NCBI GenBank assembly: GCA_016219865.1
Contig: JACRKF010000014.1
Span: 1-55,161 of the forward strand
Reading direction: 5' to 3'
Origin: Candidatus Woesearchaeota archaeon
GTDB lineage: Archaea > Nanobdellota > Nanobdellia > Woesearchaeales > DSVV01
Length of the DNA: 55,161 nucleotides
Below are positions 39,177 through 54,950 of the stretch, one piece after another; position 1 is the first letter of the stretch; each line of letters opens with the position of its first letter. The notes below the pieces were generated by a model. The model was not told where the DNA came from and did no database searches. It was given only the letters and a program-made list of their open reading frames with translations. The translations under genes and the position numbers were made by a program.

Positions 39177-41102
39177 CTATTTTATATTAACAAACATTCT
39201 TTTCTGAGGATTGTATTCGAATAAACCATTTGATTGGTTAAAGATAATCTTTTGAGAATCAGACTTGAATTCATTATAACGGAAGAAAACTGTTATTTGA
39301 TTATTATGTAAAAAACTAATATTAAATGATTTTTCTATATAGCTTCTTCCATGTCTAGATAATGGATTAGGTAATTGTAAAGGAGATAATAAATAATTAT
39401 AGATTAGTTTAATATCTGTTCCAAAACATTTGTAAATATTGATAACAGGGAGTTTTGTTCCATTAACTAATTGTTCATTACCTTTACTATATAAGAATAT
39501 TTCGTATTGTGGATCACTATTGACAATATTTGCAAGAGAATAAATATTATAGTTTATTATGTCATCTTTCTTATTAAATATTAGTTTTCCATGGCTATCG
39601 TGTATTTGTAAATACTCGGCGTTGTTAATTCTTCCCATTTTCTGTTCAATCATTTCATTTCCAGGATTGTCACAAATATCTGCTATAATTGGGCCTTTTG
39701 AGAGAGCAATATTAGTTGTTTCTACAATTAATCTTCTTTCTTTTCCATTAATAAACGAAGAAACAATTATTCCTTCTGAATTATTGGTGATATTTATTAT
39801 TTCTGCACCAATATCTTCCCGTTTTGTTTTGTTAGTTTCTTTATGTACTTGCTGCCAATACCAAATAATCGATCCTGCAGTATCTTCAATTGCCAATGGA
39901 ATTAATTCATCTGCTAACAATGCTGCTAATGATTTTCTTTCTGGGAACTTTGGTGTTTTTGTATAATGAGATTCATTATCTTTGTTTATTACCATCCTAA
40001 ATAATTGTTGAACTTCATTTATTGAATCTAATTGTGTAAATCTTTCTACCCAGCCAATCTTAAATATTTCTGGAAATGCCTGCATTGATGCTTCAATATA
40101 GAACCAATCTTCTTTCTCTTTTTCATTAGCTGGTTTGGGGAAATCTTTTGTTTGCCACCAATCATCTAATATTGCATAACTGCCTCGCCACATACCCTCA
40201 AAATAAGGATTTAAGTCATGCTTCCAATGATTGCCATCAATTCTCCAGCCAGTATTAGCTAAGTCAACCCATTGATCTTGGTAATGCAATGAAGGAAACA
40301 TCTTTCCAAGTATTCCTAACTCTGCTCCTTTTTTTTCTCTTTCTGTATCTTTAAGATTTGCAGAAAAGCGATTTATGGTATATCCAACAAATGAACCTAA
40401 TCTGAAATAATCTTCAATTGAACGTATTCTTAGTGGATTATTCTTATCTAGTAATGGCAATGTTTTTTTGTTTTGTAATGTAATATCACAGTAATGTTCA
40501 AAACCAAATTGGTTGGTAATGACAAATCCAGCCGGAGCTATAAACGCATGAGCTTCTAAGTTTGTGTGTTCAGGTAATGTAACATCTTGAACTAAATGGA
40601 GAACATGGGCTAATGCAAAATAAGCTCGTTTTTTATTTTGTTGGTATAATCTGATAGAATCTTCAAGATCGCAAAGATTATATTTATCATTCAATCCCCA
40701 GTCCATTGCATTCTTAAATTGGTGTGAAGCAATTGGTGATGAATTAAGATAACCTTTGTTATCAATTGGACGAAAAAAATGATTAAAAAATCTTGTTCTT
40801 GTGTCTCCTGCAATATTACACATTGCATTATAATCTACAGATTTATTCATTGCAGGAAATATTGAATCTTCATCAGCAACACCTTCTTTTAAAATTGCAA
40901 GCATTGGCTTTATTTCATCACATATTTTTTTGTGTTCTTGTTTTTGACAAATATATTCAACAGCTTGCTCAGTAATCCATTGATGCACATTAATCTCATG
41001 GGCTTTTGCTGGTTTTGCAGTTTGCATTACAAGAGTTGCTGTTAAAGCAATTGCACTGTATTTTATTGTTCTCCAACAGTTGTTGATGATAGTTGTAAGC
41101 AT
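39177..41102 (-). CDS. Secreted zinc-dependent phospholipase C-like (PLC / S1-P1 nuclease fold) protein with ~400-aa unknown C-terminal region
   Basis: Signal peptide ...LVMQTAKPAKA followed by HEINVHQWITEQA, then FNHFFRP, LAHVLHLVQDVTLPEHT and FGFEHY, matching the ordered Zn-ligand motifs of the Zn_dep_PLPC family. Start at ATG 41102; TTG 41126 is an alternative. Confidence 0.7.
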   Translation of the reverse strand: MLTTIINNCWRTIKYSAIALTATLVMQTAKPAKAHEINVHQWITEQAVEYICQKQEHKKICDEIKPMLAILKEGVADEDSIFPAMNKSVDYNAMCNIAGDTRTRFFNHFFRPIDNKGYLNSSPIASHQFKNAMDWGLNDKYNLCDLEDSIRLYQQNKKRAYFALAHVLHLVQDVTLPEHTNLEAHAFIAPAGFVITNQFGFEHYCDITLQNKKTLPLLDKNNPLRIRSIEDYFRLGSFVGYTINRFSANLKDTEREKKGAELGILGKMFPSLHYQDQWVDLANTGWRIDGNHWKHDLNPYFEGMWRGSYAILDDWWQTKDFPKPANEKEKEDWFYIEASMQAFPEIFKIGWVERFTQLDSINEVQQLFRMVINKDNESHYTKTPKFPERKSLAALLADELIPLAIEDTAGSIIWYWQQVHKETNKTKREDIGAEIINITNNSEGIIVSSFINGKERRLIVETTNIALSKGPIIADICDNPGNEMIEQKMGRINNAEYLQIHDSHGKLIFNKKDDIINYNIYSLANIVNSDPQYEIFLYSKGNEQLVNGTKLPVINIYKCFGTDIKLIYNYLLSPLQLPNPLSRHGRSYIEKSFNISFLHNNQITVFFRYNEFKSDSQKIIFNQSNGLFEYNPQKRMFVNIK

Positions 41103-41197
41103 AAGATAAGGAGAATGTGGTGGCAATATTTAACTTTTGTTATTTGGTAGTTGTTATATCACTAAATTTATATACAAGCTATTGTTTATATAGTTAT

Positions 41198-41401
41198 ATG
41201 CCTACAACAATTCAAGTAAATAAGCATACGTTGCTTTTATTAAAAAAAATAAAGGAAGAAACAGCATCTGTATCTTATGATGAAACTATACGTAAGATTG
41301 CTAATGAGAGAATAAATTCCTCTTCAATGGCTGGTATATTAGGTAAAAGAACACATAAATGGATCATGAATGATCTGAGGGATAAAAGTGATAGGTTCTA
41401 A
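41198..41401 (+). CDS. vapB: VapB-type antitoxin
   Basis: 67 aa. MPTTIQVNKHTLLLLKKIKEE...SYDETIRKI is paralogous to 51952-52149. Overlaps the downstream PIN gene by 14 nt. TATA-like aaatttatatac upstream. Confidence 0.7.
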   Translation: MPTTIQVNKHTLLLLKKIKEETASVSYDETIRKIANERINSSSMAGILGKRTHKWIMNDLRDKSDRF

Positions 41402-41768
41402 ATTAATAGATTCTTCAATTTGGCTAGAATTTCTAGCAAATAGTAGTTATCAAGATCTGATAGAATCTAACGAAGTTTTGTTTGTTTCTTCTGTTTCAAT
41501 ATTTGAGATTAGAAAGAAATTGCTAAAAGAAAAGATAGACAAAGAAATTATCTTGAAAAGTATTAATTTCATAAAAGCAAGAAGCCATTTTGTAATACCT
41601 ATATCAACACAAATAGCAGAGAAAGCAGCAGAAATATCAATGGAGTTTAAACTTCATACAGCAGATGCTTTTATTTATACAACTGCCTTGCTTAATGATT
41701 GCTTGTTGATTACTGCTGATAATGATTTTAGAGGATTAAATAGTGTTCAAGTGCTAGAAAAACCTTAA
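41388..41768 (+). CDS. vapC: PIN-domain toxin VapC
   Basis: 126 aa starting at a GTG inside the vapB end. Carries the four conserved acidic positions (LIDSS, SIFEI, ADAFIY, ADNDF). Confidence 0.8.
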   Translation: MIGSKLIDSSIWLEFLANSSYQDLIESNEVLFVSSVSIFEIRKKLLKEKIDKEIILKSINFIKARSHFVIPISTQIAEKAAEISMEFKLHTADAFIYTTALLNDCLLITADNDFRGLNSVQVLEKP

Positions 41769-42034: not shown

Positions 42035-43300
42035 ATGGAAATAAAGCAATTAGAACAGTTTAATCCTTGGTGGAAAACAAGAGAAATGAATAGAGAATGG
42101 ACTAAATCTTACAAGAGGGTACTGTATTCTGCTTTAGAAAAATATCTCATACAGAGACAGATAATTTTGATACAAGGATTAAGAAGAATGGGTAAAACAA
42201 CGCTTCTTTTTCAATTAATAGAGGATTTACTGCAGAAAGTAGAACCAAAAAGAATATTATACTTCTCTTTTGACGAACAGATAGTTGATATACGAGAAGT
42301 GCTTGAAACATACCAGAAATTAGTTTTAGCAGCAACTTTTGATACACTCAAAGAAGATAAAGTATATGTTTTTCTTGATGAAATACAAAAAGTTGAAAAC
42401 TGGGAAAATAAATTGAAAACATATTATGATCTCTATCCTCAAATTAAATTATTTATTTCAGGTTCTGCCTCAGTGCGATTGCTCAGAAGATCAAAAGAAT
42501 CTCTTGCAGGAAGAATCTATGATTTTATTTTAGAACCATTGTCATTTAAGGAGTTTCTTGAGATAAATGGTAAAGATTTACAAAAAATAAAAGAAAATCC
42601 TGAACTCTGGAAAAGAGAATTACTTCCATTATTCTATAAATATCTTAAGTTTGGCACATTTCCTGAATTAGCAGCAGAGGAAAATGAAGAGATTGCCAGA
42701 AAATATATCATGAACACTGTAGTAGATAGGATTATCTACAAAGATATCATCGAGGAATTTAAGGTAAAAGATATAGAACTCATGAAGAGCATATTCGCAA
42801 TTCTCTGTAAAAATCCAGGTATGCTTGTAAACTTCAAAGAGATTGCTAATAACCTCGGAAGAGATCAACGAACAATTGCGAATTACTTCGAATATTTAGA
42901 GATAAGTTTATTGACTCAATCAGTCTATAATTACAGAGGTTCGCCATTAGCAAGCTTGAGAAAATTAAAGAAAGTATATTTTACAACACCAAATATTATC
43001 TTTGCATATAACACAGAAATTCAGGATTTGTTAGGTTATATGCTTGAGAATCTTGTTCTTATGCATACAAAAGCAACGTTTTTCTATAAAGAACGATATG
43101 AAGTTGATTTTATTCTTGTCGAGGATGATTCTATTATTGGAATAGAAGTAAAAAGCAATGCAATACGATATAATCAACTCTTGCAGTTTCAGAAGAAATT
43201 CGGAGAGAAAGTGAAGAAGATGATGATTATTGACCTAGAAAATGAAGGCAAGGAAAAAGAGATTGAGATTATTTCAGCTTGGAAGATGTTATTAGAGTAA
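42035..43300 (+). CDS. AAA+ ATPase of the AAA_14 / DUF4143 type
   Basis: 421 aa with Walker A GLRRMGKTT and Walker B VFLDEIQKVENWE. The C-terminal part has the architecture typical of DUF4143-containing ATPases. Confidence 0.75.
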   Translation: MEIKQLEQFNPWWKTREMNREWTKSYKRVLYSALEKYLIQRQIILIQGLRRMGKTTLLFQLIEDLLQKVEPKRILYFSFDEQIVDIREVLETYQKLVLAATFDTLKEDKVYVFLDEIQKVENWENKLKTYYDLYPQIKLFISGSASVRLLRRSKESLAGRIYDFILEPLSFKEFLEINGKDLQKIKENPELWKRELLPLFYKYLKFGTFPELAAEENEEIARKYIMNTVVDRIIYKDIIEEFKVKDIELMKSIFAILCKNPGMLVNFKEIANNLGRDQRTIANYFEYLEISLLTQSVYNYRGSPLASLRKLKKVYFTTPNIIFAYNTEIQDLLGYMLENLVLMHTKATFFYKERYEVDFILVEDDSIIGIEVKSNAIRYNQLLQFQKKFGEKVKKMMIIDLENEGKEKEIEIISAWKMLLE

Positions 43301-43325: not shown

Positions 43326-44168
43326 TTATAATCCTTTGATTCTTTCATACACATTTCCATCAAGCAATGGATTAAGCACTTTTACATCAACGCGCTTGTT
43401 TCCAGCTGTATTGTATCTTGCCAAATATTTGTTTAATTCATCTGTTCCATATTTGCTTCCGATGAATGAAAATACTCCGCCAAAAAAACTTGTAGAAGGA
43501 TCTTGCTCTGTTGTTAATAATAACTCAACTAACTTGTCAGGCGTTGCTTCAACAGCAATCAATTTGCTGCTCATTTGATCATTTGCTGTCATTAATCGCA
43601 TCAATTGTTCTTTTGTTCCATCAAGTGAAATATGATACACGCCATCACTCCCTCGTGGAGCAACGTAGGGCATAAAATTTAATCCAATATTCTGCTTTTC
43701 ACCTAAAGCTTTGCTAATCTCTCCCATCTCTTGTTGTATCATTCGCGTTAAATAAGAATCCACATTAATTTCTCTGCTGCCATCAGCATTTTGCTGCACA
43801 TCTTTATTGCTTGTAAATCCACCAAATCCACCTATTACATTAGCTCCAAAATCAATTTTGTTTCCGAATAATGCATATCTTCCATTTTCACAGGTGGCAA
43901 TGATCCATGATGCTAATGGATTAAATCCAAGGTTTGCAGATGCTGTATCTCTCATATAATAATCATCACGATTAAAATATTGATTGTATCTATATCCCGC
44001 TAAATGCACTCTTGCTTCAATTCCTTGCGGTAATCTGTTATATTCTAGCAAAAAAGAAACAGGATTATCAGCAGCTTTTGGCTTTTCAGCAACAAAACTT
44101 TTCCAATAATCAGCTACTCTTTGTTCAACTTCAAAAGGAAGATCAATCTGTGTTTCCGCAATTGGCAC
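43326..44168 (-). CDS. Hypothetical protein (possible degenerate Nudix-like box)
   Basis: 280 aa from GTG 44168, which has no SD. The frame stays open and protein-like upstream to 44270, where ATT 44267-44265 follows a GAGAGG SD by 7 nt, so the protein may be 313 aa. LTRMIQQEMGEI loosely resembles the Nudix REUxEExGU box. No confident family. Confidence 0.55.
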   Translation of the reverse strand: MPIAETQIDLPFEVEQRVADYWKSFVAEKPKAADNPVSFLLEYNRLPQGIEARVHLAGYRYNQYFNRDDYYMRDTASANLGFNPLASWIIATCENGRYALFGNKIDFGANVIGGFGGFTSNKDVQQNADGSREINVDSYLTRMIQQEMGEISKALGEKQNIGLNFMPYVAPRGSDGVYHISLDGTKEQLMRLMTANDQMSSKLIAVEATPDKLVELLLTTEQDPSTSFFGGVFSFIGSKYGTDELNKYLARYNTAGNKRVDVKVLNPLLDGNVYERIKGL

Positions 44169-44317
44169 TCTAAAATCTGAAGCTTCTGAAGTAATAGAAA
44201 TTGGCGCATGATAATCGAATAAATAAATTGTTCGTTGCGCTGGATGTTTGATTGTGTGTTTTGGAATTTTTTATCCTCTCTTTATAGAATTATAATTAAA
44301 AGAAAAACAATAAAAAA

Positions 44318-45052
44318 TTAATGACTACGTCCTTGAGAACGCTGTGATGGTCTTGCTCCTCTACTTACTGCTGCAATTTCTTCTGCGTTAGGAAGATGTA
44401 TTCTTCCACCAGATTGTTGATGAGTACCACCAACTATTGGCGTTCCATGTTCATCATGGTTTGTAGTTGATGCGCCATACTGATCAACAATATGTTGGAC
44501 AATCTGCATGTATTGTTGAACTATTTCATCATATTTCTCAGCAAAGTAAACTGGATCTTTGAATGTTGTATTTTCACCAACCATTGCTTTATATCGCTCA
44601 AAGACTTCTTTAATTATTTCTGTTTTAGTTTCATTATCTGTAGGATCAACAGAATACATAACACCAGATACATAATTGTTTCTTGCTTCTGATTCTATCT
44701 GAGAACTTAATGCATCAATAACTTTATCCATTTCACCTTTTGTTGTTGCTAAACTGCTTGCTCCTTTGAAACCGCCATGTTTTTGAAATGCGCTTTCAAG
44801 ATAACGAATTGCATGTCCTCTTGCATCTGATTCATTAAGGGTTGCATTATTAGTTGCTCTCCAATGATGCTGCATATATTTTGTAATCTCATCTAAGAAT
44901 TCATTATAATTAGGTTTTGCATGTTGGATATGGTACTCAACTTTTGCTTGTCTATGTTTCTTAGTAACTGTTTCAATAATATGTTCTGGATTTAAAGCTG
45001 TAACTATTTGTTCTAATAAACTACCACTTCTCGTACTATGATTTTCGCTCAT
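44318..45052 (-). CDS. Hypothetical protein, paralog of 45191-45922 (no TM, Gly/Gln/Arg/Ser-rich tail)
   Basis: 244 aa from ATG 45052 (GGGGTG SD 9 nt upstream). Shares YMQHHW, FQKHGGF, VFERYK and FKDPVYFA motifs with the upstream gene. Confidence 0.65.
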   Translation of the reverse strand: MSENHSTRSGSLLEQIVTALNPEHIIETVTKKHRQAKVEYHIQHAKPNYNEFLDEITKYMQHHWRATNNATLNESDARGHAIRYLESAFQKHGGFKGASSLATTKGEMDKVIDALSSQIESEARNNYVSGVMYSVDPTDNETKTEIIKEVFERYKAMVGENTTFKDPVYFAEKYDEIVQQYMQIVQHIVDQYGASTTNHDEHGTPIVGGTHQQSGGRIHLPNAEEIAAVSRGARPSQRSQGRSH

Positions 45053-45190
45053 TAAAATACACCCCAACTAAATTAATTATTATGTAATTACTTGTTAGTA
45101 ATACTAATTTCTCTGTTTCATATATAAATATTTATATGTTGTAGAATATAGATTAATTAGTTAGAAAAAGAGTAAATTAAAATAATAAAA

Positions 45191-45922
45191 TTAATGATGG
45201 CCCCCGCCATGAGCATCATGCCCATCTCCATGACCTTGTTCTTTTTTTTCAGCATATTGATTTAAAAACTGATCCATCAAACCTCTATATGCTTGAATCA
45301 TTTTTCCATGATTTCTTGCATAATATTCTGGTTTCTTAAATTTAGTTCCTTCTGGTGTTAGATGTTTATATTTTTCAAATACTTTTTTTACCAAATCTGT
45401 TTGCGCATCTAAATCATCAGGTGGAACTATACTTAATTGATGTGCAATGTAACTATTATGCGACTGTGCTTCAAATTGATTAGATATAGCAGAAATTACA
45501 TCATCTAGTTTTCCTTCTTTTGCTAGTTTGTATGCATGTTGAAATCCACCTTCTTTTTCGAAAACTGCATCTAATACTTGTCGAGCATGACCAAATGCTT
45601 CTTCTTCTCCTATTTGTCCTTTATACCAATTTTTCCAATGGTGTTGCACATAACCACTTATATGTTTTCTAAACTTGTCATAATCTTTAATCTGCGGATC
45701 TTCAATTTTCCAACTATTTCTTATTTTTCTATGCGGTACAATTACTTTTTCAGTTACTTTTTCAGGATCAAGACCATTTAATATTGTTTCTAGTGGATCA
45801 TGCTGTTCATGTCCATGAGTTCCATGTCCTCCTCCGTGACCATGCGCATCCAAATTTAATATTAAAATAACTATCCCTATCAATAATGCTATTCCTAAAG
45901 AACCTATTATTAACATTTCCAT
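45191..45922 (-). CDS. Hypothetical membrane-anchored protein with His/Gly-rich tracts at both ends
   Basis: 244 aa from ATG 45922 (GAGGT SD upstream). One TM, then HGHGGGHGTHGHEQHD, and a C-terminal GHGDGHDAHGGGHH. The ORF-track extension to 46066 overlaps the divergent gene and has no support. Confidence 0.65.
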   Translation of the reverse strand: MEMLIIGSLGIALLIGIVILILNLDAHGHGGGHGTHGHEQHDPLETILNGLDPEKVTEKVIVPHRKIRNSWKIEDPQIKDYDKFRKHISGYVQHHWKNWYKGQIGEEEAFGHARQVLDAVFEKEGGFQHAYKLAKEGKLDDVISAISNQFEAQSHNSYIAHQLSIVPPDDLDAQTDLVKKVFEKYKHLTPEGTKFKKPEYYARNHGKMIQAYRGLMDQFLNQYAEKKEQGHGDGHDAHGGGHH

Positions 45923-46026
45923 ATTATCAACCTCATTATTTATTTTTATATGATGTAAGATATATGGTAAATATAAATCTATTCTTTTAGATAACTTTAT
46001 ATATTGCAAATGTATACATATGTAAT

Positions 46027-46515
46027 ATGCTGATATCAAATACTTCAACATTAATACTTTTGGCAAAAGTTAATAATCTTAAATTATTTTTAGAAAAATA
46101 TGGCAAGGTTGAGATACCAAATGAAGTGCATATTGAATTAATGGTTAAAAGTTCCCAATATGATACGATGATGATTAGGAAAGAAATTGAATGTAAGAAT
46201 ATTCTAATCATAAAAAATAACGTGAAAAATGTTCAAGAAATATTAGGTGAGTTTAACCTTGATTTAGGAGAAGCTGCAGCTTATATGCTTTATGAAAAGA
46301 ACAAACATAAAGCAATATTAACTGATGATTATGAATTAATTAAGTTATGCAGATTGCAGGAGATTCCATTTTTGTGCGCAATGGCAATAATAGTTAAAAT
46401 GTATGAAGACAAATATCTTTCAAAAGAAGAAGCTGAAACCAAAATAAAACGATTGTATGAGGTAGGAAGATACTCTAAAATGATCAAAGAATATTATCTA
46501 GAAAAGGTGAAGTAA
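46027..46515 (+). CDS. PIN-like (DUF3368-type) putative toxin
   Basis: 162 aa. SNTSTLILLAKV...LGEAAAYMLYEK...AILTDDYELIKLCR matches the DUF3368 pattern. Followed 1 nt later by a UPF0175 gene. Confidence 0.65.
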   Translation: MLISNTSTLILLAKVNNLKLFLEKYGKVEIPNEVHIELMVKSSQYDTMMIRKEIECKNILIIKNNVKNVQEILGEFNLDLGEAAAYMLYEKNKHKAILTDDYELIKLCRLQEIPFLCAMAIIVKMYEDKYLSKEEAETKIKRLYEVGRYSKMIKEYYLEKVK

Positions 46516-46516
46516 T

Positions 46517-46804
46517 ATGGAAATAATATCAGTTAGAATTGATAAGATTCCTCAAATTGATGAGTTCACGAAAGTATTAAATGAAAATAGATCCAGCACT
46601 ATACGAGAGTTATTAGAACATGGAAGAAGAATGAAAGCTTTAGAACTATATAAACAAAAGAAAGTAAGTCTTGGAAAAGCTGCAAAACTTGCTGGGTTAA
46701 CCCTCAGTGAATTCATAGAGCTATTAAAGGAATTTAGCCTTACACTAAATATTGAATTAGATGATGTAAAACAATCATTAGAATACGCTAGAAAATTACT
46801 CTAA
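46517..46804 (+). CDS. UPF0175-family putative antitoxin
   Basis: 95 aa. ALELYKQKKVSLGKAAKLAGLTLSEFIELLKEF is the typical UPF0175 HTH core. AAGGTGAAG SD upstream. Confidence 0.7.
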   Translation: MEIISVRIDKIPQIDEFTKVLNENRSSTIRELLEHGRRMKALELYKQKKVSLGKAAKLAGLTLSEFIELLKEFSLTLNIELDDVKQSLEYARKLL

Positions 46805-46859: not shown

Positions 46860-47408
46860 ATGAAAAGCAAAGAAGAAGCAGTACTTGTATTGTTCTTTAA
46901 TGAACCCAGCAAACATTGGCATTTTGAAGAATTATTGAAAGAAGCAAAGATCAGCAGAAAACAATTAGTGCGATGGCTGAAGATATTCAATAAAGATGAT
47001 CTGATTATAAGAGTAAAAGAAAAAGGAAAAATGCCTTATTATAGGGGAAACTATGATAACCCGGAATATCAAAATAAAAAGAAAGTTTATGCTTATGATA
47101 CGCTCTACAAAACAGGTTTTCTTAATCATCTTATTAATTTGCCAAAAGCAAAAACAATTATTATCTTTGGAAGCTTTTGCAGATGGGATTGGCATAAAGA
47201 AAGTGATATTGACTTATTTGTTTTTGGTGATCCAGATGATCTTGAACTCTATAAATATGAATCATTGTTAGGAAGAGAGATACAATTATTTTCATGTAAA
47301 GATACTGCTGATTTAAAGAAATATTCAGAAGCTTTAATTAGAAATATCATCAAAGGCAATTTTATTAAGGGAAATCTCAATTTTTTAAGGGTGAACATAA
47401 ATTATTGA
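46860..47408 (+). CDS. Nucleotidyltransferase-domain (MNT-type) protein with N-terminal wHTH
   Basis: 182 aa. IIIFGSFCRWDWHKESDIDLFVFGD fits the minimal NTase motif GSx(n)DxD. Confidence 0.7.
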   Translation: MKSKEEAVLVLFFNEPSKHWHFEELLKEAKISRKQLVRWLKIFNKDDLIIRVKEKGKMPYYRGNYDNPEYQNKKKVYAYDTLYKTGFLNHLINLPKAKTIIIFGSFCRWDWHKESDIDLFVFGDPDDLELYKYESLLGREIQLFSCKDTADLKKYSEALIRNIIKGNFIKGNLNFLRVNINY

Positions 47409-47499: not shown

Positions 47500-47877
47500 A
47501 TGATTGAACTTTCAACTGGCGACCAAGAAGTTGCTGCTAAAATAAAGAAAGATCTTCATAAAGAGAGTATAATCTGGAATAATGTCTATTGCTGTTATTA
47601 TGATGCTTTGCATAAACTAGTTGAAGCATATTTGATGTTTGATAAAATAACTTCTTTAAATCATCTTTGTTTATTTGCATATCTTTGTGAGAAACATAAA
47701 GAACTTGAATTGGATTGGAACTTCTTTGAAAGAATAAGAACAAAAAGAAACGGAATTAACTATTATGGTCAAAAGGTAACCTATGATAATCTAAAATCAA
47801 TAGAAATACAAGTCAAGTTATACATCTCTCTTCTAGAAAAAGAAATAACTAAGAAAATTAATCAATTTAATGACTAA
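47500..47877 (+). CDS. HEPN-domain protein (partner of the MNT gene)
   Basis: 125 aa from ATG 47500. All-helical, with RTKRNGINYYG at the position of the HEPN Rx4-6H motif (Tyr at the His position). The frame is open back to 47401, where ATT follows a GGTGA SD by 6 nt and overlaps the upstream stop (ATTATTGA). Confidence 0.6.
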   Translation: MIELSTGDQEVAAKIKKDLHKESIIWNNVYCCYYDALHKLVEAYLMFDKITSLNHLCLFAYLCEKHKELELDWNFFERIRTKRNGINYYGQKVTYDNLKSIEIQVKLYISLLEKEITKKINQFND

Positions 47878-48776: not shown

Positions 48777-51491
<2,715 letters not shown>

Positions 51492-53110: not shown

Positions 53111-53142
53111 ATAAATTTGCGAACTGCGTTCAGCAAATTTAT
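53111..53142. terminator. 14-bp hairpin (one bulge) between convergent genes
   Basis: ataaatttgcgaac-tgc-gttc(a)gcaaatttat between stop 53108 and the minus-strand stop at 53142-53144. Confidence 0.4.
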
Positions 53143-54950
53143 CAAAACACTTTTCTAACAGCCATATTATGCGCTTCAATATAATAATCAATAAATCTGT
53201 TCCAGTCTGCTAAGTTAGATAATTCTTTTGCTATTATCTTCTGGGTTACACGTCCTTTTTCGTCAAGTGAACAGTAACTCTCTAATATATTTGTGAATTC
53301 TTTTATTATCTCTTCTTCTGTTTTCTGCATCCGCTGTAAAACAAATATCCCTCCTTCTGTTTTTCTTGTCTTATTAATAAATCTGCCAAAGCCGCCTAAA
53401 TCTGTTGTTAATGAAGGAACACCTAATGCAGCAGATTCTAATGGCGTGTAACCCCATGGTTCATAATAAGAAGGAAATAAACCAAGATGACACCCAGTAA
53501 TTGCTTCATAATATGGGAGATCTATTAATCCATCAACTCCTGAAAGATAAACTGGATAAAAAATAACTTTTACTTTGTCATCTTTTTTGTTATCTAATCC
53601 ATATTCAGAAAAACTTTTGAGAATTATGTCTTGTTGTTCTCCTGCTAAATTATGCGTTGTCAATAATGGAGTTCCTTTTTGCATGAAATGCAATCGCATT
53701 CTTTTCGCTTCAACAAGAAATTCTTCATTAAATATATTCTCTGTCTTGAATGATTCAGATTCATAACACTTGATGTCGCATGACAAAAGATGATGCAGCA
53801 TATTCTTTTGGATAATATGATCATTTTTATGCACAAAGTTTTTCAGACGCAAGTAATTCATCTTGTTCTCAGATAATTCTTGTTTTGCGCTTAATACATC
53901 TCGTGGAATCCAAAAAAAAGTGATGACTGTCTTCTTTGAATTCTGTTTTTTTAGTTGTTCATTGAGTTTAGAGAGTGATTGTATCAGAAGATCAATGCCT
54001 TTATTCTTGAATTCATATCTGCCTACAATGAAAAAAAGCAATGTCTGGTCCAGATCAAAATAATAATGAGAAAAGAAATAATATGCAATGAATTCTCTTA
54101 TCTTTTCTCTGTTTATACGATGCTGCACAGATGTTTCTTCAAATGATGGAAATTTTTCAGCATCTAAACCATTTAGTACAAGCATTTCTGGTTTTCTTCC
54201 ATAAAACTTTTCTGCCTCAAGCGCAGTAATCTCTGAAACTGTTGTAAATACATCGCATGCAGTTGCAGCAGCAACTTCTGTGAGATGTTTATCTTGGATG
54301 CCATAGTTGTATGCTTCTTTTATTGGATCAATTTTTGGAAGTATATCATATAATGGCTTGTTTGCAGCGCTTATCATTCTGCCAAGCATTGTTGCATGAG
54401 TTGTGAAGATAGTTGCTACTTTGCATTTTGCAGACTTAATTAATAAAATGCTAAATGCAGAAAGCCATTCATGCGCATGAAGAATAATCTTTTGTTGAGC
54501 ATTATTATCTTGATTTTTTTGATATAACTCCACAAATTTTCCAGCAGCTGTTGAAAATAATAATGGCTCATCAAATTCATTGTTGCTTGCTAGAGAATCT
54601 ATCTTGTATTCTTCCCAATACTTTTTTTTAAGGTCATTTTTTGCATAATTAAAATTGCAATAATCAATCAAGATAACATTTGGCAATCCTTTAATTTGCC
54701 ACTTGCCAAAATGGCATTGAATTCCTTCTTTTTTCAGCTGATCAAATATCTTTAAAAATTCAGCAGGTGTTTCTTCTTCAGTAAATTCGTCCTCTGAGTT
54801 CTTAGTATTGTATGGCCCAATTAGAAAATAGTTCTTGTACTTCTGTTTCATAAGATCTGCTTTTGAAGAAACAACTGTGTATATTCCTCCGACTTTATTG
54901 CACACTTCCCAGGAGACTTCAAAGAGAGTATCAGCATTTGCAGCAAGCAT
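53142..54950 (-). CDS. Eukaryote-type (GT3 family) glycogen synthase-like glycosyltransferase
   Basis: 602 aa. FEVSWEVCNKVGGIYTVV, HAHEWLSAF...IFTTHATMLGR, DVFTTVSEITALEAE, FFIVGRYEFKNKGIDL and GCHLGLFPSYYEPWGYTPLESAALGVPS closely track the fungal and animal glycogen synthase blocks. Confidence 0.85.
   Translation of the reverse strand: MLAANADTLFEVSWEVCNKVGGIYTVVSSKADLMKQKYKNYFLIGPYNTKNSEDEFTEEETPAEFLKIFDQLKKEGIQCHFGKWQIKGLPNVILIDYCNFNYAKNDLKKKYWEEYKIDSLASNNEFDEPLLFSTAAGKFVELYQKNQDNNAQQKIILHAHEWLSAFSILLIKSAKCKVATIFTTHATMLGRMISAANKPLYDILPKIDPIKEAYNYGIQDKHLTEVAAATACDVFTTVSEITALEAEKFYGRKPEMLVLNGLDAEKFPSFEETSVQHRINREKIREFIAYYFFSHYYFDLDQTLLFFIVGRYEFKNKGIDLLIQSLSKLNEQLKKQNSKKTVITFFWIPRDVLSAKQELSENKMNYLRLKNFVHKNDHIIQKNMLHHLLSCDIKCYESESFKTENIFNEEFLVEAKRMRLHFMQKGTPLLTTHNLAGEQQDIILKSFSEYGLDNKKDDKVKVIFYPVYLSGVDGLIDLPYYEAITGCHLGLFPSYYEPWGYTPLESAALGVPSLTTDLGGFGRFINKTRKTEGGIFVLQRMQKTEEEIIKEFTNILESYCSLDEKGRVTQKIIAKELSNLADWNRFIDYYIEAHNMAVRKVF

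Follow-up and report, generated by a model that had tools for sequence, protein, structure and literature searches.

A tandem paralog pair from a large unannotated protein family beside a NUDT22-like Nudix-fold gene in a Candidatus Woesearchaeota genome

The window analyzed here is a stretch of 55,161 nucleotides (nt) of Candidatus Woesearchaeota archaeon DNA (assembly GCA_016219865.1, contig JACRKF010000014.1), which forms contig C52 of a 1.34 Mb genome (G000) that is 91% complete and has a guanine–cytosine content of about 31%. Its relatives with names are proteins from metagenome-assembled genomes of Woesearchaeota. Three open reading frames (ORFs) on its minus strand, P1, P2, and P3, all of which we confirmed, had been described in an initial annotation as a three-gene operon of unknown function. 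Our analysis leans toward an alternative account, in which two unrelated elements lie side by side in this genome alone: P1 and P2, tandem paralogs of a family we call fam0, occupying a fast-turnover slot, and P3, a protein resembling human NUDT22. While this account as a whole seems to us only somewhat better than an even bet, we have high confidence in its descriptive core, namely the P1/P2 paralogy, the extent of the family, its lack of a known fold, its fusions and operons, the turnover of the slot, the fold of P3 and the sugar context of its relatives, and the absence of linkage between the two families.

Results

P3 is not a conserved partner of P1 and P2

Across the 401 genomes of the phylum, fam0 is found in 13, all from one order, and the P3 family in 11 (a count that includes the unpublished genome G283). 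Both families occur together only in the window genome and in G110, where they lie on separate contigs (C2 and C17), and none of 20 fetched loci outside the window has fam0 and the P3 family within about 8 kb of each other. The adjacency of P1/P2 and P3 is unique to the window genome, and P3 is not a conserved partner of P1/P2; conserved co-occurrence, whose absence the initial annotation had named as refuting its proposal, is thus lacking.

P1 and P2 belong to a large family without a known fold

P1 (45191..45922, 243 amino acids [aa]) is a probably membrane-anchored member of fam0, matching the family profile at E 1.5e-103, and P2 (44318..45052, 244 aa) is its soluble paralog. The two share 35% identity over 205 aa (BLASTP, E 1e-43), in agreement with the paralogy proposed initially. 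The hydrophobic segment and the His/Gly tracts reported for P1 are likewise present in its translation. The segment, a probable membrane anchor, covers residues 4–24 (45851..45913) and is modeled by AlphaFold2 (AF2) as a helix of residues 5–24 with a low predicted local distance difference test (pLDDT) score. One tract follows it at residues 26–41 (45800..45847) and the other closes the protein at residues 230–243 (45194..45235); between them the AF2 model places an all-helical core at residues ~43–228 (45239..45796). In P2, the core (residues 1–212) is followed by a conserved C-terminal tail (residues 213–244, 44321-44416). The tail of P2, Gly/Gln/Arg/Ser-rich in the initial annotation, is not mere low complexity, as its motif R-[IL]-[HY]-L-P..EIA..RG is kept in P0017 (43% identical).

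Within the libraries searched, the earlier statement that no family has been described for the P1/P2 core stands: P1 and P2 have no significant match in Pfam, NCBIfam, PHROGs, or PADLOC, a PDB sequence search with profile A2 returned noise only, and ESM Atlas gave no usable match for P2. In PADLOC, no model was matched at E<=0.01 by P1, P2, and six other fam0 members, nor at E<=0.001 by the three fam0 genes of the metagenome locus L059. Three pattern scans of viral contigs (P0078, P0037, and A2) confirmed no relatives, at a sensitivity that is limited. The core is nonetheless not an orphan but part of a large unannotated family. When 1.84 billion representatives were searched exhaustively with a HMMER profile, 969 clusters (defined at 50% identity) came out at E<=1e-3, 468 of them at E<=1e-10; a word-indexed search had given only 4 relatives. 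The family, with a domain of ~190 aa, is widespread but patchy across bacteria and DPANN archaea.

Among the 150 clusters listed out of the 969, most are stand-alone proteins of 185–220 aa, and about 25 are longer (527–572 aa) with the fam0 domain at the extreme C-terminus. The N-terminus of these long forms is the proteolytic domain of a Lon protease (PDB LonB-type, E 1.6e-5; NCBIfam LonB, E 3.5e-9; Pfam Lon_C, E 8e-6); one form carries DUF2201_N and another a coiled coil. A reading of the bacterial Lon fusions as phage capsid or scaffold proteins was considered and rejected, as they have no PHROG or BFVD matches. Two histidines, His64 and His95 in P1 numbering, co-vary across the family, with both present in 91 of 153 members, neither in 42, and a mixed state in 20; both are missing from 22 of the 25 long fusions. 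Most fam0 members do not have His tracts, only P1 and P0004 combine them with a transmembrane leader among the matches listed, and P0005 has the tracts and no transmembrane segment.

The AF2 model of P1 contains nine core helices (mean pLDDT 76.9, reaching 94–98 over residues 60–150). No convincing match to it was found with Foldseek in the PDB (best E 0.28), and the best hit in BFVD was at E 0.23. VIA, run against 48,161 chains, gave at best Z 6.0, which is under the helical noise level stated for that tool. Nucleotidyltransferases of the ANT(9) type show a weak likeness in their helical domains (Z 4.4–4.9), also within noise. For HEPN, P1 and P2 have no Pfam or NCBIfam match, and their fold resemblance is limited to these same ANT(9)-type domains.

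P3 is a NUDT22-like Nudix-fold protein

P3 (43326..44267, 313 aa) is a two-domain protein whose ORF, called with table-11 start codons, begins at an ATT. Of the two starts originally offered, 44168 and 44267, we retain the ATT at 44267, since seven homologs (222–318 aa) have their Met at this codon and their N-termini in register with the sequence upstream of the GTG at 44168. The ATT comes two codons past a TAA and, from our reading of the sequence, appears to have a Shine–Dalgarno-like GAGAGGA (44274..44280) 6 nt upstream.

The likeness to Nudix proteins, originally described as weak, is upheld by the fold. The AF2 model of P3, built on an 8-sequence alignment (pLDDT 82.7, predicted template modeling [pTM] score 0.85), matches human NUDT22 (PDB 5lor, 5lf9, and 5lou) in Foldseek at E 4.7e-11 to 7.7e-10 with template modeling scores of 0.62–0.70. 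In VIA, the match reaches Z 22.5 over 249 aligned residues at a root-mean-square deviation of 2.8 (model residues 13–274 against chain residues 3–287), with the next match at Z 12.8 and dozens of ordinary Nudix enzymes at Z 9–12.8. The predicted structure has the Nudix alpha/beta/alpha fold, and all rows listed among the 35 Foldseek matches at E<=1e-3 are Nudix-fold chains. The model also includes the extra N-terminal beta-rich domain typical of NUDT22: the alignment spans both domains and scores about 10 Z units above single-domain Nudix proteins.

Sequence comparison, on the other hand, misses this relationship. P3 is just 13–14% identical to human NUDT22 and matches no Pfam or NCBIfam family at E<=1, its profiles A3 and A6 find no NUDT22 sequence at E<=10, and none of its 41 relatives has a precomputed Pfam domain. 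Its degenerate Nudix-box region reads G150-x5-D156-x18-R175-M-I-Q-Q-E180-M-G182 (43716..43820, counting residues from the ATT). Alignment A6, of 15 sequences, has E180 in every sequence and G182 conserved to at least 90%, and the stretch R175–E180 falls within model helix 170–188 (A3 numbering). NUDT22 itself is described as a protein that "lacks a conventional NUDIX box" (PMC5688067), and P3 resembles the human UDP-glucose/UDP-galactose hydrolase (UDP, uridine diphosphate) both in its whole two-domain fold and in being without such a box. We conclude that P3 is a further member of an unmodeled NUDT22-like branch, found in ultra-small archaea and bacteria, of the known Nudix superfamily.

In five of eight other loci, P3 relatives lie among genes for UDP-sugar or glycan enzymes, three of which are directly upstream on the same strand: a GFO/IDH/MocA oxidoreductase (twice) and a UDP-glucose dehydrogenase. 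Genes of the PMT_2, GT2, DegT, and EamA families are also found around P3 relatives. One case is a 927-aa ArnA-like fusion of GFO/IDH/MocA, formyltransferase, and epimerase domains (L047:5362-8145, genome G323), the end of which overlaps the start of a P3 homolog; PMT_2, DegT, GT2, and small EamA genes surround it, and the set is suggestive of an aminoarabinose-like pathway of the Arn type in a DPANN archaeon. The remaining three loci have no such neighbors. Nudix hydrolases are known from polysaccharide clusters, for example the GDP-mannose mannosyl hydrolase NudD/WcaH of E. coli. The P3 relatives in L047, L048, and L050 are similar in being Nudix-fold proteins encoded among nucleotide-sugar enzymes. 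However, NudD/WcaH proteins are single-domain with a near-canonical box, while P3 has an extra N-terminal domain and a degenerate one. Human NUDT22 is reported to convert UDP-glucose to glucose-1-phosphate and uridine monophosphate (PMC10101856). Given the NUDT22-like fold and the genes around its relatives, P3 most likely binds or hydrolyzes a UDP-sugar.

A variable slot in archaea

In the same-genus genome G001, the syntenic site (contig C38, L074:2484-4959) has flanks 74–81% identical to the window in DNA, and it contains neither fam0 nor the P3 family. Inside the interval, little matches beyond 108 nt over the 5' end of P1 (window 45837-45944, 77% DNA identity). The G001 counterpart of P1, P1' (250 aa), has the leader of P1, with identity at 15 of 25 residues, and carries a His tract at each end. 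It is accompanied by a soluble paralog, P2' (249 aa, 33% identity to P1', E 5e-36), and, in the place of P3, by a 242-aa HExxH protein (motif HELMH). The core of P1' and P2' is a different one: BLAST aligns only the leader with fam0, and hhalign against a 102-sequence profile gives a probability of 0.7%. Similar His/Gly tracts are found in P0004, P0005, and P1', and because they also flank an unrelated core in G001, the tracts belong to the leader and tail and not to the core domain.

Twelve archaeal fam0 loci outside the window were analyzed for their context. In eight of them, from six genera, fam0 adjoins, mostly head-to-head, a gene we call fam3, which encodes a ~620-aa protein with a Pol-beta/minimal nucleotidyltransferase (MNT)-type domain and no assigned function (in the window genome G000:C25:29538-31367, L065:8491-10377); ESM Atlas returned it merely as a hypothetical Woesearchaeota nucleotidyltransferase. 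The second core, of the P1'/P2' type, also adjoins fam3, in G045 (two copies) and G022. While all 61 of the related genomes have fam3 (37–71% identity), the genes divergently upstream of it in 20 further genomes vary and are mostly BLAST singletons of 170–360 aa. We therefore regard the position beside fam3 as a variable slot and not as a functional pairing.

Bacterial fam0 operons

Five metagenome loci (L055-L059, four of them mutually 88–100% identical) share a fam0 operon transcribed in one direction, located at about 100-15400 in L059. It begins with a 922-aa mad8/HerA-like ATPase, two small proteins, a WD40 protein, and a mad6-like Ser/Thr kinase, and continues with a 562-aa Lon::fam0 fusion, two stand-alone fam0 proteins (192 and 195 aa), and a TrwB/HerA-like ATPase, past which, after a gap, comes an AEP-TOTE/PrimPol primase. 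PADLOC supports the kinase as mad6-like (E 9e-49) and two ATPases as mad8-like (E 1e-15 and 9e-11). Two more distant loci retain the Lon::fam0 fusion, one of them together with a stand-alone fam0 copy, and an unrelated bacterial locus from a metagenome-assembled genome (L064) combines fam0 with Replic_Relax and a TrwB-like ATPase and has GmrSD and patatin genes in its vicinity. Tandem paralogous copies recur, in the bacterial operons as well as in G001 and G045; fam3 is not found at the bacterial fam0 loci.

TOTE is presented as a conflict-system family (bioRxiv 10.1101/2025.09.15.676423), and MADS (methylation-associated defense system) as an anti-phage system (PMC13662399). The bacterial fam0 operons share with MADS a mad6-like kinase and mad8-like ATPases of the HerA/TrwB type. 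They differ in that no methyltransferase was seen in the operon and fam0 matches no PADLOC model, and the window, for its part, has no kinase or ATPase of the mad6/mad8 kind. We regard the operon of L055-L059 as a candidate conflict system of an undescribed type.

Layout of the locus and its surroundings

Within the trio, the P1 ATG has a GAGGT 8 nt upstream, and oligo-T runs are found 3' of both the P1 and the P2 stop codons. The gap between P1 and P2, given as 125 nt in the initial annotation, is 138 nt, and that between P2 and P3 is 50 nt. A scan for bacterial-type promoters and terminators found sites at or below shuffle expectation, which is uninformative given that the consensus is bacterial and the host archaeal.

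The three genes are co-directional and sit between toxin–antitoxin (TA) modules, as described before. Pfam scans identify the flanking TA-type genes as a PIN gene (41388-41768), a UPF0175 gene (46517-46804), and an MNT-type gene (46860-47408). The convergent neighbor of the trio, which lies outside it and is given here as context, encodes an AAA_14/DUF4143 ATPase by Pfam (42035..43300, plus strand) that matches the PADLOC candidate defense family PDC-S01 at E 1.4e-68; in G008, a homolog of this ATPase is located between a fam0-like gene and fam3. The surroundings of the trio are thus island-like. Beside the UPF0175 and the MNT-type gene, respectively, two ORFs without Pfam matches (46027-46515 and 47500-47877, plus strand) probably encode the toxins, PIN-like and HEPN-like, that complete two TA pairs.

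Several other features of the window deserve mention. A 649-aa ORF (39177-41126, minus strand) has no Pfam, NCBIfam, or PADLOC match and is 81% identical in DNA in G001. A 901-aa GyrB-like ORF (48786-51491, plus strand) has an inserted block ending in VHNS in translation, which appears to be an intein. A GT3 glycogen synthase of the eukaryote type (PF05693, E 1e-150; 53142-54950, minus strand) shows synteny with the fam0 region in two genomes, G057 and G420; GT3 enzymes in eukaryotes use UDP-glucose, which is the NUDT22-type substrate. A giant surface-protein operon also lies inside the window.

Discussion

We propose that the locus consists of two unrelated elements, a fam0 paralog pair in a fast-turnover slot and a NUDT22-like gene next to it. 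A number of observations weigh against this proposal or parts of it. The AF2 model behind our statements on the P1 fold was built from an alignment of 6 sequences only. The bacterial fam0 contexts, being few, amount effectively to two or three independent ones, and most archaeal fam0 genes are single-copy and have no ATPase, kinase, or protease partner, so the conflict-type reading is carried over to archaea from bacteria. The 50-nt gap between P2 and P3 is compatible with co-transcription in the window genome. As for P3, the gene lies outside any sugar cluster in the window, and its sequence departs from the canonical Nudix box, GX5EX7REUXEEXGU, keeping one of the three box glutamates and carrying an 11-residue insertion, for which reason P3 may bind its ligand without hydrolyzing it.

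Other explanations start from the same observations. P1 could be a membrane-tethered binder of Ni, Zn, or Co with P2 as its soluble partner, the two serving to buffer or chaperone metal by way of the His tracts and His64/His95. His-rich metal-binding proteins of the HypB, UreE, and Hpn type are well known, and P1 resembles them in its terminal His/Gly-rich tracts; the recurrence of tracts at both ends in P1, P0004, P0005, and P1' of G001, and the co-varying His pair in the stand-alone forms of fam0, would suit such a function. However, we found no relation to these proteins in sequence or fold, and no gene for a Ni enzyme among the scanned neighbors. Pfam shows no metal transporter, hydrogenase, or urease among the 15 window neighbors or the archaeal neighbors. 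Most fam0 members are without His tracts, which travel with the membrane leader and flank an unrelated core in G001, and the bacterial contexts of the family are conflict-like or mobile-element-like. Metal handling as the main function therefore appears unlikely to us.

We consider two further possibilities very improbable. One is that the trio is a true operon specific to this lineage, in which P1 and P2 tether or regulate P3 at the membrane, for instance to supply UDP-sugars for surface glycans. The shared direction of the genes and the short gap of 50 nt from P2 to P3 are in line with this, as are the giant surface-protein operon and the GT3 glycogen synthase in the same window; but the co-occurrence is not conserved, the HExxH protein replaces P3 in G001, and the stop codons of both P1 and P2 have oligo-T runs behind them. 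The other is that fam0 is an accessory subunit of fam3, encoded head-to-head with it. Their adjacency in 8 of 12 archaeal loci would agree with this, and so would the likeness of the P1 model to ANT(9)-type helical domains, itself within noise. Yet fam3 is universal among the 61 relatives while fam0 occurs in 13 of 401 genomes, the two are on different contigs in the window genome, most of the 20 genomes compared have proteins of other kinds, unrelated, in the slot, and the bacterial fam0 loci do without fam3. We therefore rejected P1/P2 as a partner of fam3, a universal gene beside a variable slot in which fam0 is rare.

Returning to the two-element proposal, the slot is one in which, within an archaeal order, whole pairs of anchored and soluble paralogs with unrelated cores are swapped behind a conserved leader. 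What P1 and P2 do there we can outline only tentatively, in a functional reading that we hold to be less likely than not. P1 may keep its helical domain tethered at the cytoplasmic membrane face, a placement suggested by the other fam0 members, all of which lack signal sequences and some of which are fused to a cytoplasmic-type protease domain. The recurrence of tandem paralogs leads us to infer that P1 and P2 could associate, forming a hetero-oligomeric adaptor or sensor. A conflict- or defense-type function, or a role in interactions, is suggested by the island-like surroundings, the fast turnover of the slot, and the operons in bacteria, and the His tracts of P1 might recruit a divalent metal.

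In a bolder version of this account, which we regard as rather doubtful, the locus would be a hypervariable cassette of the Woesearchaeota type, ancestrally head-to-head with the universal nucleotidyltransferase, in which pairs with unrelated helical cores are swapped behind a transmembrane/His leader. Here fam0 would be a new conflict-system domain, which in bacteria is fused to Lon and has a kinase and HerA/TrwB-like ATPases as its working partners.

For the Nudix superfamily, our results indicate that annotation pipelines could gain a model for the NUDT22-like branch, since sequence profiles miss it. For fam0, they describe a sizeable family without a Pfam model or a fold match that recurs as tandem paralogs and as Lon-protease fusions in conflict-like operons. 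The most unusual feature of the locus is the swap, within one genus, of the cores of both paralogs behind a leader that is kept, which for a reduced genome is an unusual kind of cassette turnover. Provided that the swap is functional, it suggests that DPANN archaea have a variable module that is so far undescribed, and should the hypervariable cassette be real, the locus would be a diversifying module for immunity or for symbiont–host interaction, of a kind not yet described.

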